DNA from: Desulfobulbus propionicus DSM 2032
GTDB taxonomy: Bacteria > Desulfobacterota > Desulfobulbia > Desulfobulbales > Desulfobulbaceae
Assembly: GCF_000186885.1 (NCBI RefSeq)
Contig: NC_014972.1
Location: 1,800,001 to 1,832,000 of the forward strand
Length of the DNA: 32,000 nucleotides
Reading direction: 5' to 3'
Within the stretch, counting starts at the first letter, position 1. Each line of letters begins with the position of its first letter. Under the pieces are notes generated by a model. The model was not told the origin of the DNA and did not search any database. It saw only the letters and a list, made by a program, of their open reading frames with translations. Shown piece after piece: positions 198-31,185 of the stretch. The position numbers and the translations under genes were made by a program.

Positions 198-1196
198 TTA
201 GTTGACCGCGACCTGGGCGCGACCGTTGGCCTTGGCCTGGTAGAGGATGTCGTCGGCCCGTTCCAGCCAGGCATCGAGCTGCATGCCGCTTTTCCATTCG
301 GACAGGCCGATGCTGACCGCCAGGCGCCCGGCCTGGGTGACGATGTTGAGTTCTTCCACGGCCTGGCACAACCGTTCGGCCAGGAAACGGGCATCCTCCA
401 TGGCGGTATCGGGAAGGACGAGCAGGAATTCGTCGCCGCCCATGCGCACCAGCAGGTCGGAGAGCCGGATCTGACGCTGCAGCACCTCGGCCACCTGTTT
501 GAGGACCTGATCGCCCATCAGATGCCCCATGGTGTCGTTGACCGCCTTGAAGTGGTCCAGATCCAGGGCCGCCAGAGTCAACGGCCGGCCATGGCGGTTG
601 GCCTGCTCGACGATTGCCCCGATCCGCTCCTCGAAGACAAAACGGTTGGGCAGACCGGTGAGGCTGTCCTTGCGGGCCTGGGCAAAGATCTCTTCATACT
701 CGATCGCCCGTTTGAGCGGATCGGCGAGAATCATCAGTGATTCGTCGATGAACTGCAATTCGTCCTCGGTCAGCGGCTTGCCCTTGCGCAGCATCACCAG
801 CAGCCCGTAGCAGTCGGTGGAGTTGAAGGCCCATTTATGCACATGAAAGCCATCGGCCCGCACCATGGGCGGTTGAGCGTCCTGCTCCAAAACTTCCTGG
901 GCCAATTGAATGGCCTGCCGCCGCTGCGGCCCATGATAGGAACAAAACATGTGCATCCGCTTCCGGCCGGGGTTGTGGTAGCCGATCAGTTCATGTCCGA
1001 CAAACTCCATCAACCAGATCGAGTAGGCCTCGATCATGGCCGGCAGATCGAGAATGCCCGCCATCCGTTGATACAGCGTATTGATCTTGCGCAATTTTTC
1101 CGATTGCTGCCGATAATGGCTCAGCTCGGACAACAGATTTTCCATGGTGGCGGCAATTTGAACATCGACCTGCTCATCAAGGGATTTCAATTCCAT
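198..1196 (-). CDS. Diguanylate cyclase, GAF-like sensor domain plus GGDEF domain
   Basis: The C-terminal half carries canonical GGDEF-domain motifs: LTGLPNR, DLDHFKAVNDTMGH, RMGGDEFLLVLPDT. An RxxD I-site (RLSD) lies 5 aa before GGDEF. The ORF is open to 1361, but the ATG at 1196 (MELKSLDEQ...) starts the conserved part, so the start is uncertain. Confidence 0.85.
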   Translation of the reverse strand: MELKSLDEQVDVQIAATMENLLSELSHYRQQSEKLRKINTLYQRMAGILDLPAMIEAYSIWLMEFVGHELIGYHNPGRKRMHMFCSYHGPQRRQAIQLAQEVLEQDAQPPMVRADGFHVHKWAFNSTDCYGLLVMLRKGKPLTEDELQFIDESLMILADPLKRAIEYEEIFAQARKDSLTGLPNRFVFEERIGAIVEQANRHGRPLTLAALDLDHFKAVNDTMGHLMGDQVLKQVAEVLQRQIRLSDLLVRMGGDEFLLVLPDTAMEDARFLAERLCQAVEELNIVTQAGRLAVSIGLSEWKSGMQLDAWLERADDILYQAKANGRAQVAVN

Positions 1197-1455
1197 GGCA
1201 TTCACTGAGGGGTGATAATTCCGTCGGGTGTGGAGCGATTCCGGTTGCCTCGACGCGCAGCCCAAGGCCTGCGGGGAGAACCATATGGAAAGAGTTAAGC
1301 GAATTGCATGCCTGTTTTGCTGAAATGTATTTTTTGTATGTAACATTAAAAGATTACCCACAGATAACGAATTCGGCGATCCTCTGCAAGCTGTTCATCG
1401 GGCGATTAGTCAGAATTTCGACAGTTGAGGTGAGGCGAGGGAAAAGGAGGGAACG

Positions 1456-3700: not shown

Positions 3701-4615
3701 TCAGGGGCAGCACAACACCTGATTGCCGCCGGCCGCCTTGGCTTGCATCAGGCAGCGGCTGGCAATCAGCAGCAGGTCGTCCGGAGAGGCGTTGCGCTCG
3801 GCGATCTCCGGGGTGAATCCGGCCACCCCGAAACTGGCGGTGCAGCTGACCAGATGGCCGTTCGCCGCACAGTTGAGACCAGCGAACCGTTCGCGCAGCC
3901 GGCTGGCCACCAGGGCGCCGCCACGGATGGGCGTTTCCGGGAGGACCAGCAGGAATTCGTCCTCGCCCCAACGGGTGATGGTGTCGATATCCCGACGAAT
4001 GGATTCCATGGCCATGCGGGCGAATCCGGCCAGGATCTGATCGCCGACGCGGTGGCCCAAGGACTCGTTGACCCCCTTGAGGCCGTCGATGTCGCAGAGG
4101 ATGACCGCAAGCGGGTGGGTGTAGCGCAACGACCGGCGCAGCTCCTTCTTGAGCAGTTCCTCCAGGTGCGGCCTGCTCAGGCAGCCGGTGAGCGGATCGA
4201 TCACGGTCATCAGGTCGATTCGCTCCCACAATTCCTGTTCCTGCAGGACCAGGCCAAACTGGCGGGCGGTGTCGAGGAGGATGGTGGCCAGGATCTCACC
4301 GGAGGTCGATTCCGGCACCACCCGGAACAGGGAGCGGCTGTTGGCCAGGTGCAGGGCGGCGGGCAGATGATCGTCGGGGACCAGCAGCAAGGGGATGGCC
4401 TGGGTGAGGGTGACCGCCTGGTTGAGAAAATCAAGCAGGCCCATGTCGGGCAGTTCACAAGCCACCAGCATCCCGCACCATTGATCCTCCAGGGCCAATT
4501 GGACCAGCCCCGTCCGGCCGTCGGCGACGGTGATAAACTCGAATTTTCCCGTGAAGTCAGCGGGAAGCTGGGCAATATTCAAACGATGGTTGATAATCAG
4601 GATGCGGTGCGACAT
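3701..4615 (-). CDS. Pseudo-receiver domain plus degenerate GGDEF domain protein (GEDEF, I-site retained)
   Basis: The GGDEF-domain core is present (CDIDGLKGVNESLGHRVGD) but the signature reads RWGEDEF, with the second Gly replaced by Glu. RDID (RxxD) lies 5 aa upstream of it. The N-terminal REC-like fold lacks the acidic pocket (IINHR instead of DD), the Asp acceptor (VACELPDM) and the conserved Lys. Confidence 0.8.
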   Translation of the reverse strand: MSHRILIINHRLNIAQLPADFTGKFEFITVADGRTGLVQLALEDQWCGMLVACELPDMGLLDFLNQAVTLTQAIPLLLVPDDHLPAALHLANSRSLFRVVPESTSGEILATILLDTARQFGLVLQEQELWERIDLMTVIDPLTGCLSRPHLEELLKKELRRSLRYTHPLAVILCDIDGLKGVNESLGHRVGDQILAGFARMAMESIRRDIDTITRWGEDEFLLVLPETPIRGGALVASRLRERFAGLNCAANGHLVSCTASFGVAGFTPEIAERNASPDDLLLIASRCLMQAKAAGGNQVLCCP

Positions 4616-21832: not shown

Positions 21833-23062
21833 ATGTCAACCGACACTCCACGGCTCCCGTCGGCCGAAACGTTCAACCGGGCCTTTGCCCTGGCCTGTAC
21901 CGCCCATGACGCCGGACGCCTGGCCGAGGCCAGGGAAGGTTATTTGCGGCTGCTGGCTGCTGCGCCTCGTTCGATGCTGCTTCACTACAACCTCGGGTTG
22001 GTGCAGTACGGCCTCCACCAGTTCGACCAGGCGTTGAGTTCCTTTTCCCAGGCCGCCAGTCTCGGCCCCGAGGACAACGATGTCCTGTTCAACCTTGCCC
22101 TGTGCCAGAAGGAAACCGGTGATCTGGCCGCCGCCGTTGCCACCTATCAGCGGATTTTAGCCGCCGCCCCGGATCATGCCGACTGCCTGTACAACCTCGG
22201 CGGCTGTTACCGGACACTCCACGACGATGTCCAGGCCATGGCCTGCTACCATCGGGTGCTGGCGGTGGCGCCCGGCTATCATCAGGCAGCCAACAACCTG
22301 GCCTACCTCTACCACCGTGCCGGCGAGATCGAGCAGGCGGTCCGCTACTACAGTCAAGTGTACGAATCCCGGCCCGACGACGAGTCGGTCGGCTACATGC
22401 TGGCGGCCCTGCTCGGCGTTCCGCTCGACCACGCGCCCGATGCCTATGTGCGCGGTTTTTTCGATGCCTATGCCGAGCACTTTGAGCAGAGCCTGGTGGA
22501 GAAACTGGGCTACGACAATCCGCGCTGCCTCTACGAGTGCCTGTGCGCGTGCGGAGAAACGCGGACCGAATATGACCACGGGCTTGATCTCGGCTGCGGC
22601 ACCGGCTTGAGCGGTCTGTCGTTCAAGCGCAGGGTAACGGCCCTGGACGGGGTCGACCTGTCACCCCGGATGCTGGACCACGCCAAAGGTAAGGGATGCT
22701 ATGCCCATCTGTACGCGGACAGCATCGACCACTACCTGCATGCCACCAGCGAGACCTACGATCTGTTTCTGGCCACCGATGTTTTTATCTATGTCGGCGA
22801 ACTGCTTGAGCTCTTCACCGCAGCCCAGGCCGTTGCCCGGCCCCAAGCCCTTTTCTGTTTTTCCACCGAGCACCTGGAAGCGGAGGGGTATCAACTGCTG
22901 CCCACCGGTCGCTTCGCCTATTCGACCAACTATATCCATGCGATTGCGGCCGGCACCGGCTGGACCGTGCTTACTCGGCAGCCGACCCGTCTGCGCCGGG
23001 AGCGCGATGCCTGGATCAATGGCGATTTGTGGATTCTTCGTCTCGCTCCAGCTGCCGTTTGA
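21833..23062 (+). CDS. TPR-repeat / SAM-dependent methyltransferase fusion protein
   Basis: N-terminal TPR-like repeats are present (AxxxYxxxLxxxPxxxxxxxNLG pattern, several copies). The C-terminal class I methyltransferase motif I is LDLGCGTGLSG. This resembles the 'predicted methyltransferase with TPR repeat' architecture. An alternative start at 21758 has an AGGAG upstream. The ORF extension back to 21056 is antisense to hrpB and is rejected. Confidence 0.75.
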   Translation: MSTDTPRLPSAETFNRAFALACTAHDAGRLAEAREGYLRLLAAAPRSMLLHYNLGLVQYGLHQFDQALSSFSQAASLGPEDNDVLFNLALCQKETGDLAAAVATYQRILAAAPDHADCLYNLGGCYRTLHDDVQAMACYHRVLAVAPGYHQAANNLAYLYHRAGEIEQAVRYYSQVYESRPDDESVGYMLAALLGVPLDHAPDAYVRGFFDAYAEHFEQSLVEKLGYDNPRCLYECLCACGETRTEYDHGLDLGCGTGLSGLSFKRRVTALDGVDLSPRMLDHAKGKGCYAHLYADSIDHYLHATSETYDLFLATDVFIYVGELLELFTAAQAVARPQALFCFSTEHLEAEGYQLLPTGRFAYSTNYIHAIAAGTGWTVLTRQPTRLRRERDAWINGDLWILRLAPAAV

Positions 23063-23077
23063 ACAAAGAATCCCACC

Positions 23078-24313
23078 TTACGGAAACAGCGGCTGATTGA
23101 AGGGGCCAAAGCCGCTGAGGCAGTCATCCTCCACCTGCTGAGCGATCTGGGTTCCCCAGACCGAAGAGTACTCGGGATCGAAATAGACCAGCTCCACGGT
23201 TTCACGGATGTGTTCGATGCCGATCCGACCGCCTTGGCTGTTTTCGTAGCGCAGCAAGGCTTGCTCCGCAGCCTGGGGTGTTTCGCCGTCATCCCGCATC
23301 CAGGCCGTGGTGGTGAACATCTCGCCGACTGTGCGGCACAGGGATTCCCGGCCGCTTGGCCCGGCCGGTTTCGTTTCCTGGAGAGATGGGGCCTGAAGGG
23401 CCGCAGAGGACGGTTGGCACCGACCCCAGATCACCCCCGATCCGGTCGTGGCGGAATCGCCGGGTGTCATGCACCAACCGAGATCCTGCAACCGCTGAGC
23501 GTTGACCCGCATCTGCCGGCAAGCGTCGTCAGCCGCCGGTCCGACCGTGTCCCAGCACAGGTGGGTCAGATCCTGGTCACGGTCGATCAGCGCCTGAATC
23601 TCGGGGCTGATGGCCACGATGCGCGCCGAATCCTCGCCGGGAGATGGCGCGGGTGCTGCTTGCCAGCCGCCGCTGGAACCAACGGCTTGCGCGCTCGGTG
23701 AACCTGGCGGCGCCTGCGGTGGAGCATCCTCCTGCGGCAACGAGGCCCGGTCGAGCGCTGTTTCCTGCTCTTCCGGGCGTTCCGTTTGCCGTGTATCCGC
23801 CTCCCCGGGTTGCTCGGTCCGGGCTTGCGGGGGCGCAACGGCGGCAACCGGCTTTTTCGCCTTCATGAACAGAAAACCGGATTCCGATCCTTTGTTGTAG
23901 GACAGGACAATACTGCTGATGTCCCCGGTCCAGCTGTACATTTCCTCGCCATTTTGCTCGATTTTCTTGCGGTCGCCGAAACGGGCAAAAGCCTCGGTCT
24001 TCATCGCGGCAAAATTTTTGTTTCCGGCAAAAAGCAGGATCACGCCCTGCAACCGCTGGTGCGTGAAGGTGCAGGAGATGCCGCTGAGGGTAGCCTTGCC
24101 AAAGCGCAGGTCCTCGTTTTGCAGGGCATAGAGGGTCTCGCCATTGGCGTCGGTTTCCTTGGTGAGAACCAGCTGTTTCGTCCGTTGCAGGTCGTTGAGC
24201 GCGCTGCCCCAGCGCATGCCCTTGAATCCATCGACATCGGCCAGGGCCGCGAGGGATGTCACGGACACGATCAGACCAAGAAGAACAAGAGACAGCGTGC
24301 GGAAACAATTCAT
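23078..24313 (-). CDS. Secreted hypothetical protein with a Pro/Ala/Gln-rich linker
   Basis: A signal peptide is present (MNCFRTLSLVLLGLIVSVTSLAALA). It is followed by a domain of about 130 aa, an acidic low-complexity linker of about 70 aa rich in P/A/Q/E, and a Cys-containing C-terminal region. No family was recognised. Confidence 0.6.
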   Translation of the reverse strand: MNCFRTLSLVLLGLIVSVTSLAALADVDGFKGMRWGSALNDLQRTKQLVLTKETDANGETLYALQNEDLRFGKATLSGISCTFTHQRLQGVILLFAGNKNFAAMKTEAFARFGDRKKIEQNGEEMYSWTGDISSIVLSYNKGSESGFLFMKAKKPVAAVAPPQARTEQPGEADTRQTERPEEQETALDRASLPQEDAPPQAPPGSPSAQAVGSSGGWQAAPAPSPGEDSARIVAISPEIQALIDRDQDLTHLCWDTVGPAADDACRQMRVNAQRLQDLGWCMTPGDSATTGSGVIWGRCQPSSAALQAPSLQETKPAGPSGRESLCRTVGEMFTTTAWMRDDGETPQAAEQALLRYENSQGGRIGIEHIRETVELVYFDPEYSSVWGTQIAQQVEDDCLSGFGPFNQPLFP

Positions 24314-24335
24314 GATCTCTATCCCAGCCGCATTG

Positions 24336-25046
24336 TCAGCGGCGGCGGCCGTCTTTACTGGCGCGAATGCTTGGAGTGACGATCAGGGCGATCCGTTCGC
24401 TGGCCGCCTTGGACAGGTGCGGGTACTGCTCGCGCAGCCAGACCAGAATACTCGCCTTGTGGGTCGCGGCCGTCGCCGGTTCTGCCCCCGCGAACAGGGC
24501 GGCCCAGCAGGCATTAGCCGCCTGGAGTTCCTGGGCGAAACAGGGATGATCGGGTGTGTTGCCCAGCGCCTCCCCCCTGATTGCCGGCTGGTGGTCGGTT
24601 AAATCGGTCGCGGCCGTACTCCGCGGTTCGATGCGGTGGGTGGTTTCGTGGTTGATCACCTCGTTGAGCCGCGCAAAAAGGCGCATCGGGTTGAGCGCGA
24701 GCATGCTGGTTTCACCCCATTCCTCGCCGACCGAATTGCTGACCGCGATCTCCTTGCCTTTGTCGTCCACGCAAAGAATTTCGGCACCAATCAGCATGCG
24801 GTCAAGGCGCCCTTGCACCTGCCGCAGCACTTCGTGTTGAAGCCGCATTTCGACCTGGGCGCTGGGTTGCGGCGCGGCCGGTTTCTTTTTCTTGCCACCA
24901 TCTCGTTTCTCGATAAACACATCGAAAAATTCGATCCACAGATCTATTGTGCCGGCCAGAGCCATTTCCACAATCTGCTCCGCGCTTGTCCGCCACCGGG
25001 CACGCAGGTCACCGAGATACACACGCTGATTTTCCGGGGTTGTCAT
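24336..25046 (-). CDS. Hypothetical cytoplasmic protein with a Lys-rich linker
   Basis: 236 aa with no signal peptide. A KRDGGKKKKPAAPQP linker is present. AAAGGA lies 7 nt upstream of the ATG. The gene ends 22 nt upstream of the 23078-24313 gene on the same strand. No family was recognised. Confidence 0.55.
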   Translation of the reverse strand: MTTPENQRVYLGDLRARWRTSAEQIVEMALAGTIDLWIEFFDVFIEKRDGGKKKKPAAPQPSAQVEMRLQHEVLRQVQGRLDRMLIGAEILCVDDKGKEIAVSNSVGEEWGETSMLALNPMRLFARLNEVINHETTHRIEPRSTAATDLTDHQPAIRGEALGNTPDHPCFAQELQAANACWAALFAGAEPATAATHKASILVWLREQYPHLSKAASERIALIVTPSIRASKDGRRR

Positions 25047-25357
25047 ACCAAATCCTTTTGTTTGTCAATTGGTTGTACCATGACGTAATCGCACCCACCC
25101 GCCGGTTCTGCTCGAAACGTCCTCGCGGACATGCCCAACAGGGCACCACCAAATCGCTCTCTTGGCCAACCCGGGAAATGGGTTCCATTTTTTTCGCATC
25201 GCCTGCCAGGTCAGGCTCGGAGCGGCCGGCAGCACGCAATTCATCAAGGTAGCAAGATCGGGTAGGGAAGGGCAACTAAAATCCTTTGTGCTCCCCCGGT
25301 GGCGGTGCGCTCCTGTTTCGACGCGGTTGGTTGTCGACCAGGGGGGCAGGATGCGGG

Positions 25358-25816
25358 TCAGTTTGGCCGTAGGTCGAGTTGGATGTAGTTGAGGTCCAGT
25401 TGGTCTCCACCCTCGCCACCTACCTCGATCAGCAGACGATCCTGGGTTTCGACAAAGGCAAAGGGTCGGTGGCCATTGGCCTCCAAGACATCCAAGAACA
25501 GGGGATAGAAAAAATCGTTGGTCTGCCCTTGGGGATCATAGGCAAACCGTACGCCGAAGACCGGATATTGACCCTCCCGGCACAGTTGAACCCATTGCAG
25601 TTCGGTTTTTGGCCGCTGACGCACTATTTCCAGGGCAGGCGATTTCCAGGCGCGTGCATCCACGGGGTGACAATCGCGGCCGAGCTGCTGGCTGAGGTCG
25701 AGAGGCGGCTCGGCGCTGGCTGCAAGGGAGGGCAATACCACAAGCAGCAGGAGCAGCAGCGATGTCTTGGCGTCTGGGCATCGTCTATTCAGCAGGGATC
25801 TGGCCGACAAAAACAT
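25358..25816 (-). CDS. Small secreted hypothetical protein directly downstream of the autotransporter
   Basis: GAGAGGA lies 5-6 nt upstream of the ATG at 25816. The signal peptide is MFLSARSLLNRRCPDAKTSLLLLLLVVLPSLAASA. The mature part is about 117 aa. No family was recognised. Confidence 0.55.
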   Translation of the reverse strand: MFLSARSLLNRRCPDAKTSLLLLLLVVLPSLAASAEPPLDLSQQLGRDCHPVDARAWKSPALEIVRQRPKTELQWVQLCREGQYPVFGVRFAYDPQGQTNDFFYPLFLDVLEANGHRPFAFVETQDRLLIEVGGEGGDQLDLNYIQLDLRPN

Positions 25817-25964
25817 GGGGGTTCCTCTCGAAAAAACGGTTGATGGGACCCTGCCGCCACAGCGACCCACCCCAGGATGGGTCTGCTTTCAGGCATTGGG
25901 CAGGGCGTGTTTGCCAGGGGCGTCTTTCCGTTACCCTGTTTGGCGGGTTCGGACAAGCTGGAAA

Positions 25965-28900
25965 TCAAAAGGTCCAAGCGAGGCGCAGGGAGAGGGCATG
26001 GTCGGTGGCACCGTTGTCGCTTTGCAGGGTGCAGTCGTAGCCAAGATGGGCGAATGCGCTTGGCGAGAGGCGGGCCTCGAGCGCGGCGCCCATGACCAGG
26101 CTGTCACCGGCCAGGTCGCGTCCGGGCGTAAGGAACATATCGCCGCCGCCAGCCAGTTGGGACTGCAGATCGTCGCTGTGGCGGTTGAACTCATGCCACC
26201 AGTGCAGCCTGAGTTCCGGTTCCAGGGCAAAGGTCTTCCATTGGAAGGGATAGGCGATCCGGGCGCCGGCAAAGCCGAGCAGGGAATCGCTCGCCCGGGA
26301 GCCTAGGGAGAGATCGGCGCTGTCGGCGCCGGATTCCTGGAAGCCTTCCTCGTCGAGCCTCACCCAGCCGCCACCCACGGAAGGCCCCAGGATCCAGTTG
26401 CCGATCACCCAGTCGTAGCCGCCCTGGACAGTGGCGCCGAACAGGCGGCCCTCGTGGTCGCTGTGGGTTGCACGGCCGGCAAAGGCCAGTGACCGGTCGG
26501 CGTCGAAGTCGATCAGGCCGGTGCCGAGCGCGGCGCCCAACCGCCAGCCCCCCGGGGTCAGGGGATCGTTCCAGGAACCGTAGAGATAGGCGTGCAGACT
26601 TTTGTTTTCCCCTTCGTCGGCACTGCTGTCGGATTCGTAGCGGCTCTCGCCGAGGGCGCCGGCCATGCCCAGGATCAGGCCATCGGCCGTGGAGCGCTCC
26701 AGGCCGAACAGCAGGCCGTAAACGTTCTTTGTCGCCCCGAAAGAGGCATCGTCCGCTTCGTACCGGCTGTGATGGCTGGGGAACTCGAACCAGGCAGTGG
26801 TCGCACCCGCACGGTCGCTGCTCTCCGGCGACGGATCGAAGTGCTCCATGCGGCGGCGCAGGCTGTCGAAACGGGACTGGGCATCGTCGAGGGCCAGGGT
26901 GGTGGCCAGGCCGTGAATGCGCGGGGTCATCTCGGCCAACGCGTTGTTGAGGGCGCTGGTGGTCAAGGCCAGGTCGAGGCGGTCAAGCAGGTCGGCGAAA
27001 TCGTTGGCCGCCGAGGGGCGAACCCTATCCAGGCTGGTTGCCAAGCCGCTGTTATGCGGGATGGCCAGGCTGGTGTAGCTGTTGCGGCTGACCTCCAGGC
27101 TCAGGTTGCCGGGCGAGAGGCTCAGCAGCTCGGTGTCGAGAATGGCGGCGCCTTGCACCCGGTCAAAGACACCGGAGATGCTGCCGGCATCGAGCATGGA
27201 GAAGCTGCCGCCGTTGGTGTAGCCGTTCGGGACGAGAAGCAGGGTCCCGTCGAGCGAGGCGGTGCCGGTGACGGTGAAACGGTCGGCTTGATCGGCACCG
27301 ATTTCCATACCCAGGGTGGCGGAGGAACTCTGGGTATAGTTGCCGTCGATGGTCAGATGGCCGATGGAATGGCCGGGAGACACGGTGCCCCGGTTGGTGA
27401 CGTTGCCGGTCAAGGTGCCGTTGCCGCCCAGGATGCCGTGCGCGCCGACAGTGGTCTCGCCGCCGATGACGCCGTCGATCCCCAGTCGTCCGTGCTCGAC
27501 CTGGATCGCACCAAAGGTGGAATGGCCGGAGAGCGACCAGTCCACCCCGTGCATGACCAAGGTTTCGGCGCCATAGAAGACCTCATTTTCCATGCCATTG
27601 CCATTGAGCAACACCACGTCGGTCTCCCCTGCCATCCACGCCGGCCCAACCAGGTCCGAACCGCTTTGCAGGATGAGACGGGTGGTATCGTAGCTGGCAA
27701 TGGAGGCGTTGTAACCGCTGATCGTGCCGCTGTTGATGATGACCGAGGGGGTGTTCGCCCAGACACCAACACCGCCCTGATAATCGAGCAGGGGCTGCAC
27801 AGAGGAAGCGACCGCGGTGATGGTGCCGCTGTTTTCCAGCCATCCTGGACCCTTGATGAAGGCGACGCCGATTGCCCAATCACCGGAGACCGCGGAAATG
27901 CTGCCCGAATTGGTTACCTGCGTGCGTCCATGGTTTTCCGACCATATCCCGGCGCTTCCCTTGAGCGTGTCCGCTCCTGTTTGGGCCACGATCTCGCCGC
28001 TGTTCTCGATGACCAAATCGTTCTTGCCGTTACTGGCCCATATGCCATAGGAGAGGGTGAAATTGGCATCACTGTCGGCCTCGGCCGTTACTGTTCCCTG
28101 GTTGACGATTTCCCCTCCTTGCAGGCAGATCCCATAGGCAACAGCCTGTCCTTGCGGGCTGAAAGCCGATGCGGTGATCAGTCCTTCATTGCGGACAGAA
28201 CCGCCGGGCCCGCCCCAGAGATAGATTCCGCGCGCCGTTGTCAGCGCCTCGTCCGACTGGGCATGGGCGCCAATCGTGCCCTGGTTGACGACGCTGCTGG
28301 CCTTTCCGCCCCAAAAATCGACGCCATGAGCATTGTAGGTTCCTCCAGCGCTCCAGGGAACCGCCTGGATATCGCCGGTGTTGACGAGGTGCAGACTCTC
28401 GCCGCTCCAGGGTTCCGCGATAAGATAGAAGCTCCAAAGGTTGGACATCGAGGTTGTGTAGCGAAGACGCATGTAGCCGTCCTCTCCCCATTCCTCGCTC
28501 CAGGAATTGCGCAGTATCCAGTAGCCTAGCCCATCTTCTCCGGTCTCGTCATTGTAGCCGATCAATGCCACCGCATGATCCAGGGCTGCTATGTTCACCT
28601 GCGTGGGGACGCGAAAATTGTCGTTGAGGACACCCCCCTGGTAGTCATGCCATTCCTCCCTGTCGGAATTCACGCCAATGGTGACCGCACCGATGGCATG
28701 GAGAACGCGGCGGGTGGTCTCCACGTCATTGACCGGTATGGAATACCAATCCTCCATCGTATAACGCGGGGCATCCCAATGCTGTCCGGCAGGCTGTTCA
28801 ATGACCGTCCACTGATCCTCCTGCACTGGATAGGGATAGACGCTTTCCAAGGGCGTTCCATGTTCCACCATGGCGGTCATCGGATCTTCAAGCAGACCGC

Positions 28901-29195
28901 CATCACAGCCATCCATTCCGTCATACAGGGGGCTGAGACTCCAGACCATGAAGGCCTCGGACAGATCGATGGCCTGCTGGTCGTACAGACCGTGCGTCCG
29001 GTTCCAGGTGCTTTCCGCTGCGGCCAGCGTACCAAAGGCATAACAGCTGCCGCAGTAGGCCTGATCGCGCACGGCACCGATGAAGCTGTGACCGTCGATG
29101 TCGCGCAGGTCAAAGGAAGAAGGAAGATCCATGGCCAGTCCCGGCATCGGAGCCAGGAGCACGGTGGTCAATGAAGCATACAGTGTCAAATTCAT
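25965..29195 (-). CDS. Type Va autotransporter with an N-terminal papain-like (peptidase C1) cysteine protease passenger
   Basis: A signal peptide is present (MNLTLYASLTTVLLAPMPGLA). C1 catalytic motifs are intact: VRDQAYCGSCYAF (Cys codon at 29043-29045), LDHAVALIGY and ILRNSWSEEWGEDGYMRL. A passenger of about 450 aa follows with periodic NxGxI...GI repeats typical of a beta-helix. The C-terminal beta-barrel domain of about 280 aa ends LSLRLAWTF. Confidence 0.85.
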   Translation of the reverse strand: MNLTLYASLTTVLLAPMPGLAMDLPSSFDLRDIDGHSFIGAVRDQAYCGSCYAFGTLAAAESTWNRTHGLYDQQAIDLSEAFMVWSLSPLYDGMDGCDGGLLEDPMTAMVEHGTPLESVYPYPVQEDQWTVIEQPAGQHWDAPRYTMEDWYSIPVNDVETTRRVLHAIGAVTIGVNSDREEWHDYQGGVLNDNFRVPTQVNIAALDHAVALIGYNDETGEDGLGYWILRNSWSEEWGEDGYMRLRYTTSMSNLWSFYLIAEPWSGESLHLVNTGDIQAVPWSAGGTYNAHGVDFWGGKASSVVNQGTIGAHAQSDEALTTARGIYLWGGPGGSVRNEGLITASAFSPQGQAVAYGICLQGGEIVNQGTVTAEADSDANFTLSYGIWASNGKNDLVIENSGEIVAQTGADTLKGSAGIWSENHGRTQVTNSGSISAVSGDWAIGVAFIKGPGWLENSGTITAVASSVQPLLDYQGGVGVWANTPSVIINSGTISGYNASIASYDTTRLILQSGSDLVGPAWMAGETDVVLLNGNGMENEVFYGAETLVMHGVDWSLSGHSTFGAIQVEHGRLGIDGVIGGETTVGAHGILGGNGTLTGNVTNRGTVSPGHSIGHLTIDGNYTQSSSATLGMEIGADQADRFTVTGTASLDGTLLLVPNGYTNGGSFSMLDAGSISGVFDRVQGAAILDTELLSLSPGNLSLEVSRNSYTSLAIPHNSGLATSLDRVRPSAANDFADLLDRLDLALTTSALNNALAEMTPRIHGLATTLALDDAQSRFDSLRRRMEHFDPSPESSDRAGATTAWFEFPSHHSRYEADDASFGATKNVYGLLFGLERSTADGLILGMAGALGESRYESDSSADEGENKSLHAYLYGSWNDPLTPGGWRLGAALGTGLIDFDADRSLAFAGRATHSDHEGRLFGATVQGGYDWVIGNWILGPSVGGGWVRLDEEGFQESGADSADLSLGSRASDSLLGFAGARIAYPFQWKTFALEPELRLHWWHEFNRHSDDLQSQLAGGGDMFLTPGRDLAGDSLVMGAALEARLSPSAFAHLGYDCTLQSDNGATDHALSLRLAWTF

Positions 29196-29317
29196 GGTGT
29201 TTTTGTTCCCGTGATGAAGTGTTTGCCGCGTGCAGCGGTGGACGTGGACCGCGGGCATGATCGCTGTCGAGACGTCTTGGTCGTGATGAGGCAAGGTGTC
29301 CGGGTAACGGCGTTTTC

Positions 29318-29340
29318 AGGGGAGGGGGAGGAGGGGAGAA
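29318..29340. repeat. Pure polypurine/polypyrimidine tract in the autotransporter leader
   Basis: The plus strand reads AGGGGAGGGGGAGGAGGGGAGAA. The transcript therefore carries UUCUCCCCUCCUCCCCCUCCCCU, between the aptamer and the start codon. Confidence 0.7.
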
Positions 29341-29359
29341 CGAGACATGAGGAGAATAC

Positions 29360-29445
29360 GCATGCCGCAGTCCCGCTACCATAGTTTCCCGTAGGCCGGA
29401 GACTTTGCGCCCATACCTTTCGGTATGTTTGCCCAGTTATCAAGA
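29360..29445 (-). promoter_or_regulatory. c-di-GMP-I (GEMM-I) type riboswitch aptamer
   Basis: The minus strand reads CUGGGCAAAC-AUACC-GAAA-GGUAU-GGGCGCAAAGUCUCCGG-CCUACG-G-GAAA-C-UAUGG-UAGCGGGACUGCGGC. The conserved blocks GGGCAAAC, GCGCAAAG, CUCCGGCCUA and GGUAGCGGG match the Vibrio cholerae Vc2 aptamer as I recall it. P2 is a 5-bp stem capped by a GAAA tetraloop (29413-29426). P3 contains an 11-nt-type GAAA tetraloop receptor, CCUACG...UAUGG (29379-29395). Confidence 0.8.
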
Positions 29446-29474
29446 TTCCTATCACAGCAGAAAGGCAATGTCAA
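29446..29474 (-). promoter_or_regulatory. Candidate sigma70-type promoter driving the riboswitch and autotransporter
   Basis: On the minus strand: TTGACA (29469-29474), a 17-nt spacer, then TAGGAA (29446-29451). This places the predicted start a few nt before the aptamer. Confidence 0.4.
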
Positions 29475-29542
29475 AACGATCGGCGTGCAATGGGTGCGAG
29501 GAGGGACGGGATTTTTCTGCCCGGGAAGGGGGGAATCAAGGT

Positions 29543-29578
29543 AAAAAAATGCCCGACAGCCGAAAAGCACTGTCGGGC
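29543..29578 (-). terminator. Rho-independent terminator of the hsp20 operon
   Basis: GCCCGACAG (29551-29559) pairs with CTGTCGGGC (29570-29578) in a perfect 9-bp stem with a 10-nt loop. On the minus strand it is followed by AUUUUUUU (29543-29550). Confidence 0.8.
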
Positions 29579-29612
29579 TACGAGAAGAACGCACGACGAA
29601 CGGTTCTCGCCG

Positions 29613-30188
29613 TTAACTTCCAGAGGTGATCTCCACCTTCTTGACCTCTCCCTTTGGCATGGCCTTGCGAGGCATGGTGACGAACAGCACGCCGTTCTTG
29701 AAGCTGGCCTTGATGTTATCCTGATCCACGTCCTCGGGCAGGGACAGTACCCGCTGGAACGAGCCGTAACTGCGCTCGATCCGGTAGTAGTTCTTCTCCT
29801 TGTCTTCTTTTTCCTGTTTCTTTTCGCCCCTGATGGTCAGGGCGCCGGCGGCGATATCCACGGACACATCCTTTTCGCTCACTCCGGGGATCTCGACGGT
29901 GAGTTGATACTCACTGTCGGTGGCGCTCAGATCGACCTTGGGTTTGAGTACTGCCGTGCCCTCAAAGGCGGGAAAAGCGCCGAAACCGCCAACGGCGGGC
30001 AGATTGAAGCCGCGGAAAAATTGATCGAACAGTCGATCGATGTCGCGGTGAATTTGTACCATTGGATCACCGTGCCGTTGTGGATAAAAGGGGGCCTTGT
30101 GTTCGTGTTTCACCGGCACGGTATGCTCGATTTCCTCTTCGTTCTTGAACCAATTCCAGGGGGCCAGTTTTTTCAGTTCCATGGTCAT
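29613..30188 (-). CDS. Hsp20/alpha-crystallin family small heat shock protein (long form)
   Basis: The alpha-crystallin domain is present (YQLTVEIPGVSEKDVSVDI...LTIRGEKK...ERSYGSFQRVLSLPEDVD...ASFKNGVLFVTMPR). The start is 30188 or the ATG at 30182, which has better spacing to GAGGAG. Confidence 0.85.
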   Translation of the reverse strand: MTMELKKLAPWNWFKNEEEIEHTVPVKHEHKAPFYPQRHGDPMVQIHRDIDRLFDQFFRGFNLPAVGGFGAFPAFEGTAVLKPKVDLSATDSEYQLTVEIPGVSEKDVSVDIAAGALTIRGEKKQEKEDKEKNYYRIERSYGSFQRVLSLPEDVDQDNIKASFKNGVLFVTMPRKAMPKGEVKKVEITSGS

Positions 30189-30232
30189 TGCTCCTCTTGC
30201 TTCCGTGTTGGTTGTTCGGCGTATCTGCGTTA

Positions 30233-30619
30233 TCAGCCGACCTTGATTTCAATCTGCCTTGGCTTTGCGGCCTCTGACTTGGGCAGATGGAGCCGCAAGA
30301 CACCGTTACTGAGCTCGGCATGGACTTTCTCGATATCAATGCTCTGCGGCACGGAGAACGTCCGGCGGAATTCCACCTCGCCAAATTCCCGCCAGGCAGC
30401 GGCGCCGCTGGTCACCAGCCGGCGCATGCCGGACAGGGTCATCTTGCCGTTGTCGATGTTGATGGCTATGGCGTCCTTGATCACGCCGGGCATATCGGCA
30501 TAGAGCAGAATCTCGCTGTCGTTTTCAAAAATATCCACTTCGGGCGCGACAACCGGCAGCTGTTGAACAAGTTCTCCTGCCTGTTCTTTTCGGGTGACAA
30601 CCTCGGTGTTCTCGCTCAT
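30233..30619 (-). CDS. Hsp20/alpha-crystallin family small heat shock protein
   Basis: ILLYADMPGV...FRRTFSVPQSID...AELSNGVLRLHLPKSEAAKPRQIEI is present. AGGAGG lies 6 nt upstream of the ATG. Confidence 0.85.
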   Translation of the reverse strand: MSENTEVVTRKEQAGELVQQLPVVAPEVDIFENDSEILLYADMPGVIKDAIAINIDNGKMTLSGMRRLVTSGAAAWREFGEVEFRRTFSVPQSIDIEKVHAELSNGVLRLHLPKSEAAKPRQIEIKVG

Positions 30620-30664
30620 GGGTATCCTCCTTGTTCTGTGTTCGATTTTTGAATGATCGTCGAA

Positions 30665-31111
30665 TCAATTGATACTGATCTGTCGTGGTTTGGCGGCTTC
30701 CGACTTGGGGAGGGTCATTTTGAGCAAGCCATCCTTCAAGGTGGCTTCCACTTTGGAAGCATCTACCTCGTAGGGCAGGGTGAAGCTACGGGAAAAGGAT
30801 CCTGTCCCCCGTTCGGTGCGATGGATTTTAAAGGTGTCGGGGGTGTCCGATTTGCGCGCTCCGCTGATTTCCAGATAGTTGCCCTGAATCTTGACCTGCA
30901 GATCCTCTTTCAGCACTCCGGGCAGTTCAACGACGATTTCCAGATTATCGCCGGTATCGCTGAGATTGGTGCGCGGAAAGGTATCAGCGGCAACCCATCC
31001 CTGGCCGAGATTGTAGGCCCGGTCGAACTCATTGAATACGTTGTTCATCCGGTTGCGGAACAGATCCATGGCCCCCATCATCTGATGAATGTCATTCCAT
31101 CGGGTAATCAT
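30665..31111 (-). CDS. Hsp20/alpha-crystallin family small heat shock protein
   Basis: LEIVVELPGVLKEDLQVKI...FSRSFTLPYEVD...ATLKDGLLKMTLPKSEAAKPRQISI is present. AGGAGG lies 6-7 nt upstream of the ATG at 31111. The 31156 ORF start is rejected. Confidence 0.85.
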   Translation of the reverse strand: MITRWNDIHQMMGAMDLFRNRMNNVFNEFDRAYNLGQGWVAADTFPRTNLSDTGDNLEIVVELPGVLKEDLQVKIQGNYLEISGARKSDTPDTFKIHRTERGTGSFSRSFTLPYEVDASKVEATLKDGLLKMTLPKSEAAKPRQISIN

Positions 31112-31185
31112 CTTGTCTCCTCCTTTTCGTGAGTGTGTAGGGTATGTTCCGATCATGCATGACCCCGTCTTTGTGTTGTAGTTGA

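Follow-up and report, generated by a model that had tools for sequence, protein, structure and literature searches.

A 32,000-nucleotide (nt) stretch of the genome of Desulfobulbus propionicus DSM 2032 (termed here the window, whose positions serve as coordinates throughout) contains, on its minus strand, a gene for a papain-like cysteine protease autotransporter with a class I riboswitch for cyclic dimeric guanosine monophosphate (c-di-GMP) in its leader. The functional unit at this locus is, with a probability of roughly 0.8, a self-contained single-gene cassette of 3.5 kb that consists of a sigma-70-type promoter, the c-di-GMP-I riboswitch, a leader and the C1A protease autotransporter gene. 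Three genes that follow on the same strand, and that had been read as its partners, belong instead to a block resident in Desulfobulbus, and the appearance of a multi-gene module is an accident of gene order.

Conservation and borders of the cassette

The anatomy, family membership, conservation and borders of the cassette are observed directly. The only Rfam family found in the whole window is c-di-GMP-I (GEMM-I), for which the gathering score is 35 bits, and an Rfam search of 22900-29700 for a second RNA element returned none at E <= 1 (all features are listed, with their positions, in Table 1). The aptamer, whose first hairpin is capped by a GAAA tetraloop, lies in the 5' leader, on the same strand as the gene, a few nucleotides after a conserved promoter-like site and 167 nt before the ATG.

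The pairing of riboswitch and protease is retained in four other loci, one of which encodes an orthologue of 91% identity (L088/L089) and three of which encode orthologues of 57-58% identity (L096/L097, L098/L099 and L100). Thus each of the five protease genes, whose products span 57-100% identity, has a riboswitch on its 5' side, and in a neighbour-joining tree of the family these five riboswitch-bearing proteases form one clade. The four orthologous aptamers score 65.6-69.4 bits (65.6 in L088). Among 34 loci that encode full-length homologues of at most 55% identity and that have adequate upstream sequence, no riboswitch of any Rfam class was found.

The neighbours of the pair differ from locus to locus. 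In the window, the cassette has hsp20 upstream and a small open reading frame (ORF) downstream; in L088 the upstream neighbour is an HD-domain gene and the downstream one a convergent alpha/beta hydrolase gene; and in both L096 and L098 the cassette is flanked upstream by a divergent CheW-domain gene and downstream by a convergent sigma-54 activator gene. The ORFs of L100, which were compared by position alone, are consistent with the L096/L098 arrangement, and this locus probably encodes homologue P0003. The edges of the homology are sharp: a blastn alignment of the window with L088 is restricted to 29480-25973 (92% identity over 3508 nt), beginning 6 nt 5' of the -35 hexamer and ending 6 nt short of the protease stop codon.

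The promoter belongs to the conserved sequence as well. Its -35 hexamer, TTGACA, is invariant in the five diverged loci, with the sequence further upstream diverging; 17 nt later follows a -10-like TAGGAA, inside the conserved block TGTGATAGGA, of which the TAGG core is invariant in all five. A generic sigma-70 scan did not flag this promoter because TAGGAA fits TATAAT at only three of six positions. Transcription is predicted to start near 29440, about 7 nt ahead of the aptamer core. Taken together, the three differing contexts, the sharp homology edges and the conserved promoter point to promoter, aptamer, leader and protease gene as the conserved unit, which, judging from the sequences compared, is monocistronic outside the window strain: for the 91% orthologue as for those of 57-58%, a convergent gene comes directly after the protease gene. 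No direct repeats of 7 nt or longer common to both cassette borders were found, and no anomaly was seen in the GC content of the cassette.

An earlier reading of this stretch, made from the sequence only (termed here the sequence-only reading), had listed the promoter, aptamer, protease gene, small ORF, spacer and the ORFs of 236 and 411 amino acids (aa) on the minus strand, and each of these is present as described. It had also put the leader at about 170 nt (it is 167 nt long), had bounded the locus by the hsp20 terminator upstream and a convergent TPR-methyltransferase gene downstream, and had noted two GGDEF-domain genes elsewhere in the window, all of which agrees with what was found here. 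Its proposal of a c-di-GMP-I riboswitch in the leader of a C1-protease autotransporter is borne out by the retention of this pairing down to 57% protein identity and across three unrelated contexts.

Table 1. Features of the cassette and its surroundings, in window coordinates; features of the cassette are given first.
Feature	Position	Strand	Remarks
Cassette	29474-25965	-	Promoter, riboswitch, leader and protease gene
-35 hexamer	29474-29469	-	TTGACA
-10-like element	29451-29446	-	TAGGAA
c-di-GMP-I (GEMM-I) aptamer	29443-29363	-	RF01051, 66.3 bits, E 4.5e-11, model positions 1-87 of 87
Short hairpin	29366-29344	-	GGCAUG...CAUGYC (GGCAUG...CAUGUC in the window)
Leader	29362-29196	-	167 nt from aptamer end to start codon
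Pyrimidine tract	29343-29318	-	29340-29318 is 23 consecutive C/U; candidate anti-aptamer strand or Rho-loading site
Protease autotransporter gene	29195-25965	-	ATG at 29195; 1076 aa; type Va, N-terminal C1A papain-like protease
Signal peptide of protease	29195-29133	-	Sec-type, by inspection; N-terminus MNLTLYASLTTVLLAPMPGLA followed by MD
C1 domain	~29126-28449	-	Begins at residue 24, straight after signal peptide
Beta-barrel	~26792-26034	-	PF03797
GC-rich compound stem-loop	25845-25905	-	Stable; just 3' of protease stop codon; U6 11 nt later; outside L088-homologous region
Small secreted protein	25816-25358	-	152 aa; Sec-type signal peptide (by inspection) and ~110-aa two-cysteine domain; outside cassette unit
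Spacer	25357-25047		311 nt
Promoter-like element	25283-25246	-	TTGCCC, 18 nt, TACCTT; upstream of 236-aa gene, inside 311-nt spacer
236-aa cytoplasmic protein	25046-24336	-	100% identical to Despr_1591; outside cassette unit
411-aa secreted two-domain protein	24313-23078	-	Signal peptide; 22-nt gap after 236-aa ORF; outside cassette unit
Convergent TPR-methyltransferase gene	ends at 23062		Downstream border of locus
hsp20 terminator	29578-29551	-	Strong terminator; upstream border of locus
Three tandem hsp20-family genes	29613-31156	-	191, 128 and 163 aa (ORF listing); immediately 5' of cassette; last one precedes terminator
GGDEF-domain gene 1	198-1361	-	2.5e-44
GGDEF-domain gene 2	3701-4615	-	1.1e-30

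The protease autotransporter

The encoded protein has the signal peptide, passenger and aromatic-ended barrel of a type Va autotransporter. It matches Pfam Peptidase_C1 (PF00112; 2.6e-39) and the autotransporter beta-domain (PF03797; 2.8e-47, covering profile positions 2-255 of 255), and it terminates in ...LAWTF, that is, with a final phenylalanine. Between the C1 domain and the barrel lies a passenger of about 550 residues made up of NxGxI-type repeats, which are conserved in the family consensus. The PF00112 match, together with the conserved Cys, His, Gln and Asn, places the head of the protein among the C1A proteases: Q45, C51, H207 and N230 (as well as W232) are invariant in an alignment of 38 homologous sequences. 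The protease has no match to the I29 inhibitory propeptide, which is typical of papain-like zymogens though not required for C1A membership; here the C1 domain directly follows the signal peptide. Since there is no inhibitory prodomain, expression is the main visible control point of this protease.

A search of 5.8 billion proteins yielded 78 full-length homologues having the same C1-plus-autotransporter architecture, and the named organisms among them are mostly Desulfobacterota. No paper describing a papain-type autotransporter, and none tying c-di-GMP riboswitches either to autotransporters or to Desulfobulbus, was found in the literature. The EprS model aligns to the passenger and barrel (residues 583-1109 of the 1109-aa extended ORF translation), but its score of 107 bits is far below the model cut-off of 1700, and identity with EprS was rejected.

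Two metagenome assemblies of the window species have the autotransporter gene split into two called ORFs (L004, 5872-9080, 886 and 191 aa; L008, 5212-8441, 944 and 132 aa), which may be due either to a frameshift introduced by assembly error or to pseudogenisation in some populations. In Desulfuromonas sp. CSMB_57 a group II intron (RF02001, RF01998, RF00029; L014, 14128-15925) lies about 2 kb downstream of an autotransporter homologue.

The leader and the direction of control

What the aptamer binds, how the leader switches and in which direction it acts are, unlike the anatomy described so far, predictions. Across the five leaders the distance from aptamer to start codon ranges from 167 to 320 nt, the L088 leader being 167 nt long like that of the window. 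The two subclades of these leaders have only two conserved features in common 3' of the aptamer: a short hairpin, which begins 1 nt after the ligand-pairing C, and a pyrimidine tract; past this tract the leader sequence is not conserved between them. The hairpin appears in the consensus fold of the five leaders, where it shows G-C to G-U changes and folding energies of -6.0 to -6.7 kcal/mol. The tract is pyrimidine-rich in all five, being either C-rich or U-rich.

When the tract is included, the unconstrained minimum free energy folds of all five leaders lose the second hairpin of the aptamer, whose 3' strand GGUAGCGGGAC pairs instead with the pyrimidine tract atop the short hairpin. These ligand-free folds lie 0.1-9.7 kcal/mol below the corresponding folds in which the aptamer is enforced. 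Enforcing the aptamer does not prevent the short hairpin from forming, so that the two can coexist.

A mechanism that would accommodate these folds is as follows. Shortly after transcription starts, the aptamer would bind c-di-GMP, as its equivalents of residues G20, A47 and C92 suggest (see below). Without ligand, the downstream pyrimidine tract would capture the G-rich 3' strand of the aptamer, so that the short hairpin grows into a long helix; the tract would then be hidden and transcription would read through into the protease gene. With ligand bound, the aptamer would be locked and the tract left single-stranded behind the short hairpin. The exposed C/U tract might then lead to premature termination, either by loading Rho or through the weak hairpin and a U tail, in which case high c-di-GMP would lower protease expression. 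We give about an even chance to this OFF direction, which is favoured because aptamer and short hairpin coexist in the enforced folds, more like the OFF switch Cd1 than the ON switch of pilM. In Rho-dependent riboswitches, such as the Mg2+-sensing mgtA leader of Salmonella and the flavin mononucleotide-sensing ribB leader of Escherichia coli, the exposure of a C-rich, G-poor tract as single-stranded RNA depends on a fold set by the ligand; no c-di-GMP riboswitch is known to act through Rho, and we infer a role for it here purely from base composition. By analogy, the OFF direction would also match the logic of zmpI in Clostridioides difficile (PMC6366702).

Several observations weigh against such a mechanism. 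The hairpin, at about -6 kcal/mol, is weak, and a search of all the leaders found no canonical intrinsic terminator. Strong C-richness is confined to the window and L088: the 80 nt 3' of the short hairpin contain 37 C and 11 G in the window and 32 C and 9 G in L088, versus 23-24 C and 17-20 G in the 57% group. The register of the extended helix differs between the two subclades, and thus no true covariation supports it; the leader as a whole folds no better than shuffled sequence (z = +0.77). Finally, a closing P1 helix is not identifiable, and if the bound aptamer were to exclude the short hairpin, the logic would become that of an ON switch.

In an ON switch, which we regard as possible but distinctly less probable than the OFF direction, the hairpin next to the ligand-pairing C, or its extended form, would terminate transcription in the ligand-free state, and c-di-GMP would prevent this and so induce the protease, as at Geobacter pilM. 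That the hairpin abuts the ligand-pairing C, that the extended helix destroys the aptamer and that four of the five leaders have U-rich sequence after the short hairpin are what such a switch would lead one to expect, and in pilM aptamer and terminator are indeed mutually exclusive (PMC9262584). The leaders examined here, however, have no detectable canonical terminator; their short hairpin coexists with the enforced aptamer, their extended helix uses up the U/C tract, and in the window this helix is followed by non-U sequence. What probability remains beyond the OFF and ON directions goes to other outputs; sequestration of the Shine-Dalgarno sequence was sought in the leader and not found.

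A conserved leader peptide was considered and rejected: the conserved AUG within the hairpin opens an ORF of 10-15 codons in the window and L088 versus 93-107 codons in the 57% group, and the ORFs of L096 and of the L098/L100 pair are unrelated past the first few residues. A 90-aa Pro/Ser-rich ORF (29110-29382, minus strand), which starts within the aptamer and overlaps the protease start in another frame, is almost certainly spurious.

The downstream genes as a resident Desulfobulbus block

The sequence-only reading had joined the small secreted protein and the 236-aa and 411-aa proteins to the protease as partners, and had proposed that comparative genomics would show whether these genes travel together. 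The comparison upholds the pairing of GEMM-I with the C1 autotransporter and goes against the rest: synteny in relatives, whose absence this reading had itself named as a refutation, is lacking for the three genes. A tblastn search of the three proteins against 113 loci of protease homologues outside this species, the 91% orthologue included, returned no match, and the 236/411 pair is kept in other Desulfobulbus with no autotransporter beside it.

The distribution of the pair shows where these genes belong. Homologues number 69 for the 411-aa protein and 45 for the 236-aa protein, and all those whose source is named come from Desulfobulbus. In three other Desulfobulbus lineages in which the pair occurs without the protease (L091/L092, L093 and L094/L095), the 236-aa homologue is always immediately upstream of the 411-aa homologue, and the pair directly precedes the convergent TPR-methyltransferase gene, with HrpB next in L091/L092 and L093. 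The upstream flank of the pair varies among these loci, and contains neither an autotransporter nor a riboswitch. A 46% homologue of the small-ORF domain is encoded, without a protease, by the gene that separates hsp20 from the pair (there of 229 and 414 aa) in L091 and L092. The ancestral block, as reconstructed from these gene orders, thus begins with hsp20, continues with the small secreted protein and the 236-aa and 411-aa proteins, and ends with a convergent TPR-methyltransferase gene and HrpB. The DSM 2032 cassette sits between hsp20 and the small gene, in or beside this resident block.

The pair plausibly has a promoter of its own. The promoter-like element within the 311-nt spacer, GATTTTAGTTGCCCTTC...CTTGCTACCTT, is 87% identical over its 38 nt to the sequence at the equivalent position in L094, and it is kept upstream of the pair in both L091 and L094, the rest of the spacer having diverged.

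It is therefore very unlikely that the riboswitch controls all four genes as one operon, with the three downstream products serving as protease partners. All four genes do lie on the same strand, and their arrangement is unchanged in several metagenome assemblies and in the metagenome-assembled genome GCA_029267735.1; yet the eight assemblies in which it is identical represent one species and so lend the module no independent support. Against it stand the absence of the three genes from all of the protease-homologue loci outside this species, the occurrence of the pair and of the small domain without the protease, the L088 homology, which goes no further than the protease gene, and the promoter-like element conserved within the spacer. 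A point on the other side, and one that tells against a strictly single-gene unit, is that a scan between the protease gene and the small ORF found no canonical terminator, the stem-loop at 25845-25905 not being one; because no strong terminator separates them, read-through from the protease gene, and thus co-transcription with the small ORF, is possible in this strain.

As the sequence-only reading had supposed, no family is recognised for the three proteins: they have no match among Pfam, NCBIfam or PADLOC families, and their sole PHROGs match is a marginal one of the 236-aa protein to phrog_24056, of unknown function (E 0.0079). The AlphaFold2 model of the 236-aa protein (mean predicted local distance difference test score, pLDDT, 84) has no fold match in the PDB (best E 0.036); the beta-alpha-alpha-beta-beta layout of its modelled N-terminus is reminiscent of excisionase/MerR-type winged helices. 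The N-terminal domain of the 411-aa protein (pLDDT 79) weakly resembles DUF4309/TM1622-like extracytoplasmic folds (Foldseek E 2e-3 to 3e-3), and is followed by a disordered Pro/Ala/Gln linker and a cysteine-rich helical domain.

The domain of the small secreted protein, of about 110 aa, is marked by two near-invariant cysteines and by YPVF, DP and ANG motifs, and it matches nothing in Pfam or the PDB. The 178 representative clusters that contain it comprise stand-alone proteins (about 135-155 aa) and larger ones in which it is embedded (about 250-1600 aa), TPR repeats being present in some of the latter. The idea that the small ORF is a remnant truncated by insertion of the cassette was rejected, as its signal peptide aligns with that of the two-domain homologue P0238; by this alignment the small ORF is a single-domain version of that protein rather than a truncation.

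Ligand specificity and the small secreted protein

Positions 11, 38 and 83 of the RF01051 model align with G29433, A29406 and C29367 of the window. We take these three positions to be G20, A47 and C92 of Vc2, in a numbering that follows the Vc2 sequence and, in part, PMC6140456. At the first of them an A in place of G20 (A14 of Gs1761) defines the GEMM-Ib RNAs, which sense cyclic GMP-AMP (cGAMP) (PMC6140456). The host belongs to the Desulfobacterota, a phylum rich in GEMM-Ib riboswitches, and many riboswitches of Geobacter and its relatives sense 3',3'-cGAMP; yet the specificity position is a G in the window and in the four orthologous aptamers alike, which leaves only a slim chance that this one does so, and cGAMP specificity was rejected. 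Because all five aptamers of the clade keep the G20 equivalent, c-di-GMP is the predicted ligand.

Very unlikely, too, is the notion that the prodomain-less protease has its own inhibitor or immunity protein in the small secreted protein, which would be encoded beside it like chagasin or staphostatin: the small protein is adjacent, secreted and on the same strand, but an inhibitor role was rejected on its synteny and its lack of an inhibitor-family match, given that it accompanies no other member of the protease family, that its closest homologues adjoin the 229/414 pair where there is no protease, and that its domain is widespread, occurring even inside large TPR proteins.

Significance and relation to known systems

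The principle seen here is not new: c-di-GMP riboswitches are well known, and zmpI provides an example that involves a secreted protease. What is new is the cargo, namely an uncharacterised family of papain-type autotransporters (about 78 full-length homologues), mostly from sulfate- and metal-reducing Desulfobacterota, one clade of which has acquired a GEMM-I leader. For a protease that lacks a prodomain, the riboswitch may be the principal safety catch. The operon picture is corrected as well, in that annotating the three hypothetical genes as protease partners under riboswitch control is not warranted; and, as the host is a cultured type strain, the prediction can be put directly to the test.

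There is also a more ambitious reading, which we consider unlikely. The cassette would then be the first c-di-GMP riboswitch to act by exposing or hiding a pyrimidine-rich Rho-loading tract rather than through a terminator/antiterminator pair, and the first case of direct c-di-GMP gating of a prodomain-less papain-type autotransporter protease; as a portable promoter-riboswitch-gene unit, it would move between Desulfobulbus genomes and would free surface proteins when c-di-GMP falls.

Parts of the cassette have counterparts in several characterised systems. With the protease autotransporters (the SPATE proteins and the subtilisin-type EprS, NalP and SphB1) the encoded protein shares a signal peptide, a protease head, a repeat-rich passenger and a PF03797 barrel; those heads, however, are serine proteases, whereas this one is a C1A cysteine protease without a prodomain. 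The GEMM-Ib riboswitches of Geobacter (pilM, Gs1761) come from a related host phylum, have the same fold and exert transcriptional control by means of a helix that invades the aptamer, but they have an A at position 20 and bind cGAMP, unlike the G-bearing aptamer described here.

Closer in specificity are Vc2 of Vibrio cholerae and Cd1 of C. difficile, which belong to the same aptamer family (RF01051) and share with the cassette the G20, A47 and C92 equivalents and a hairpin with a GNRA tetraloop. In Cd1 the aptamer and a downstream hairpin can coexist, in competition with an alternative pairing of the 3' strand of the aptamer (PMC9262584). The cassette differs from both in having a weak hairpin and a pyrimidine tract of about 25-40 nt in place of a clear terminator/antiterminator pair, with a leader of 167-320 nt following the aptamer.

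The nearest functional parallel is the class I c-di-GMP riboswitch of zmpI (PPEP-1) in C. difficile, where high c-di-GMP lowers the protease, so that adhesins stay on the surface (PMC6366702). That system is Gram-positive, with a freely secreted zinc metalloprotease and a canonical terminator, whereas the cassette belongs to a Gram-negative sulfate reducer, encodes a cysteine protease of the papain type carried by an autotransporter, and has no such terminator. In both, a GEMM-I aptamer occupies the 5' leader of one gene, which encodes a secreted protease, and, if the favoured OFF direction is correct, the two share their regulatory logic as well.

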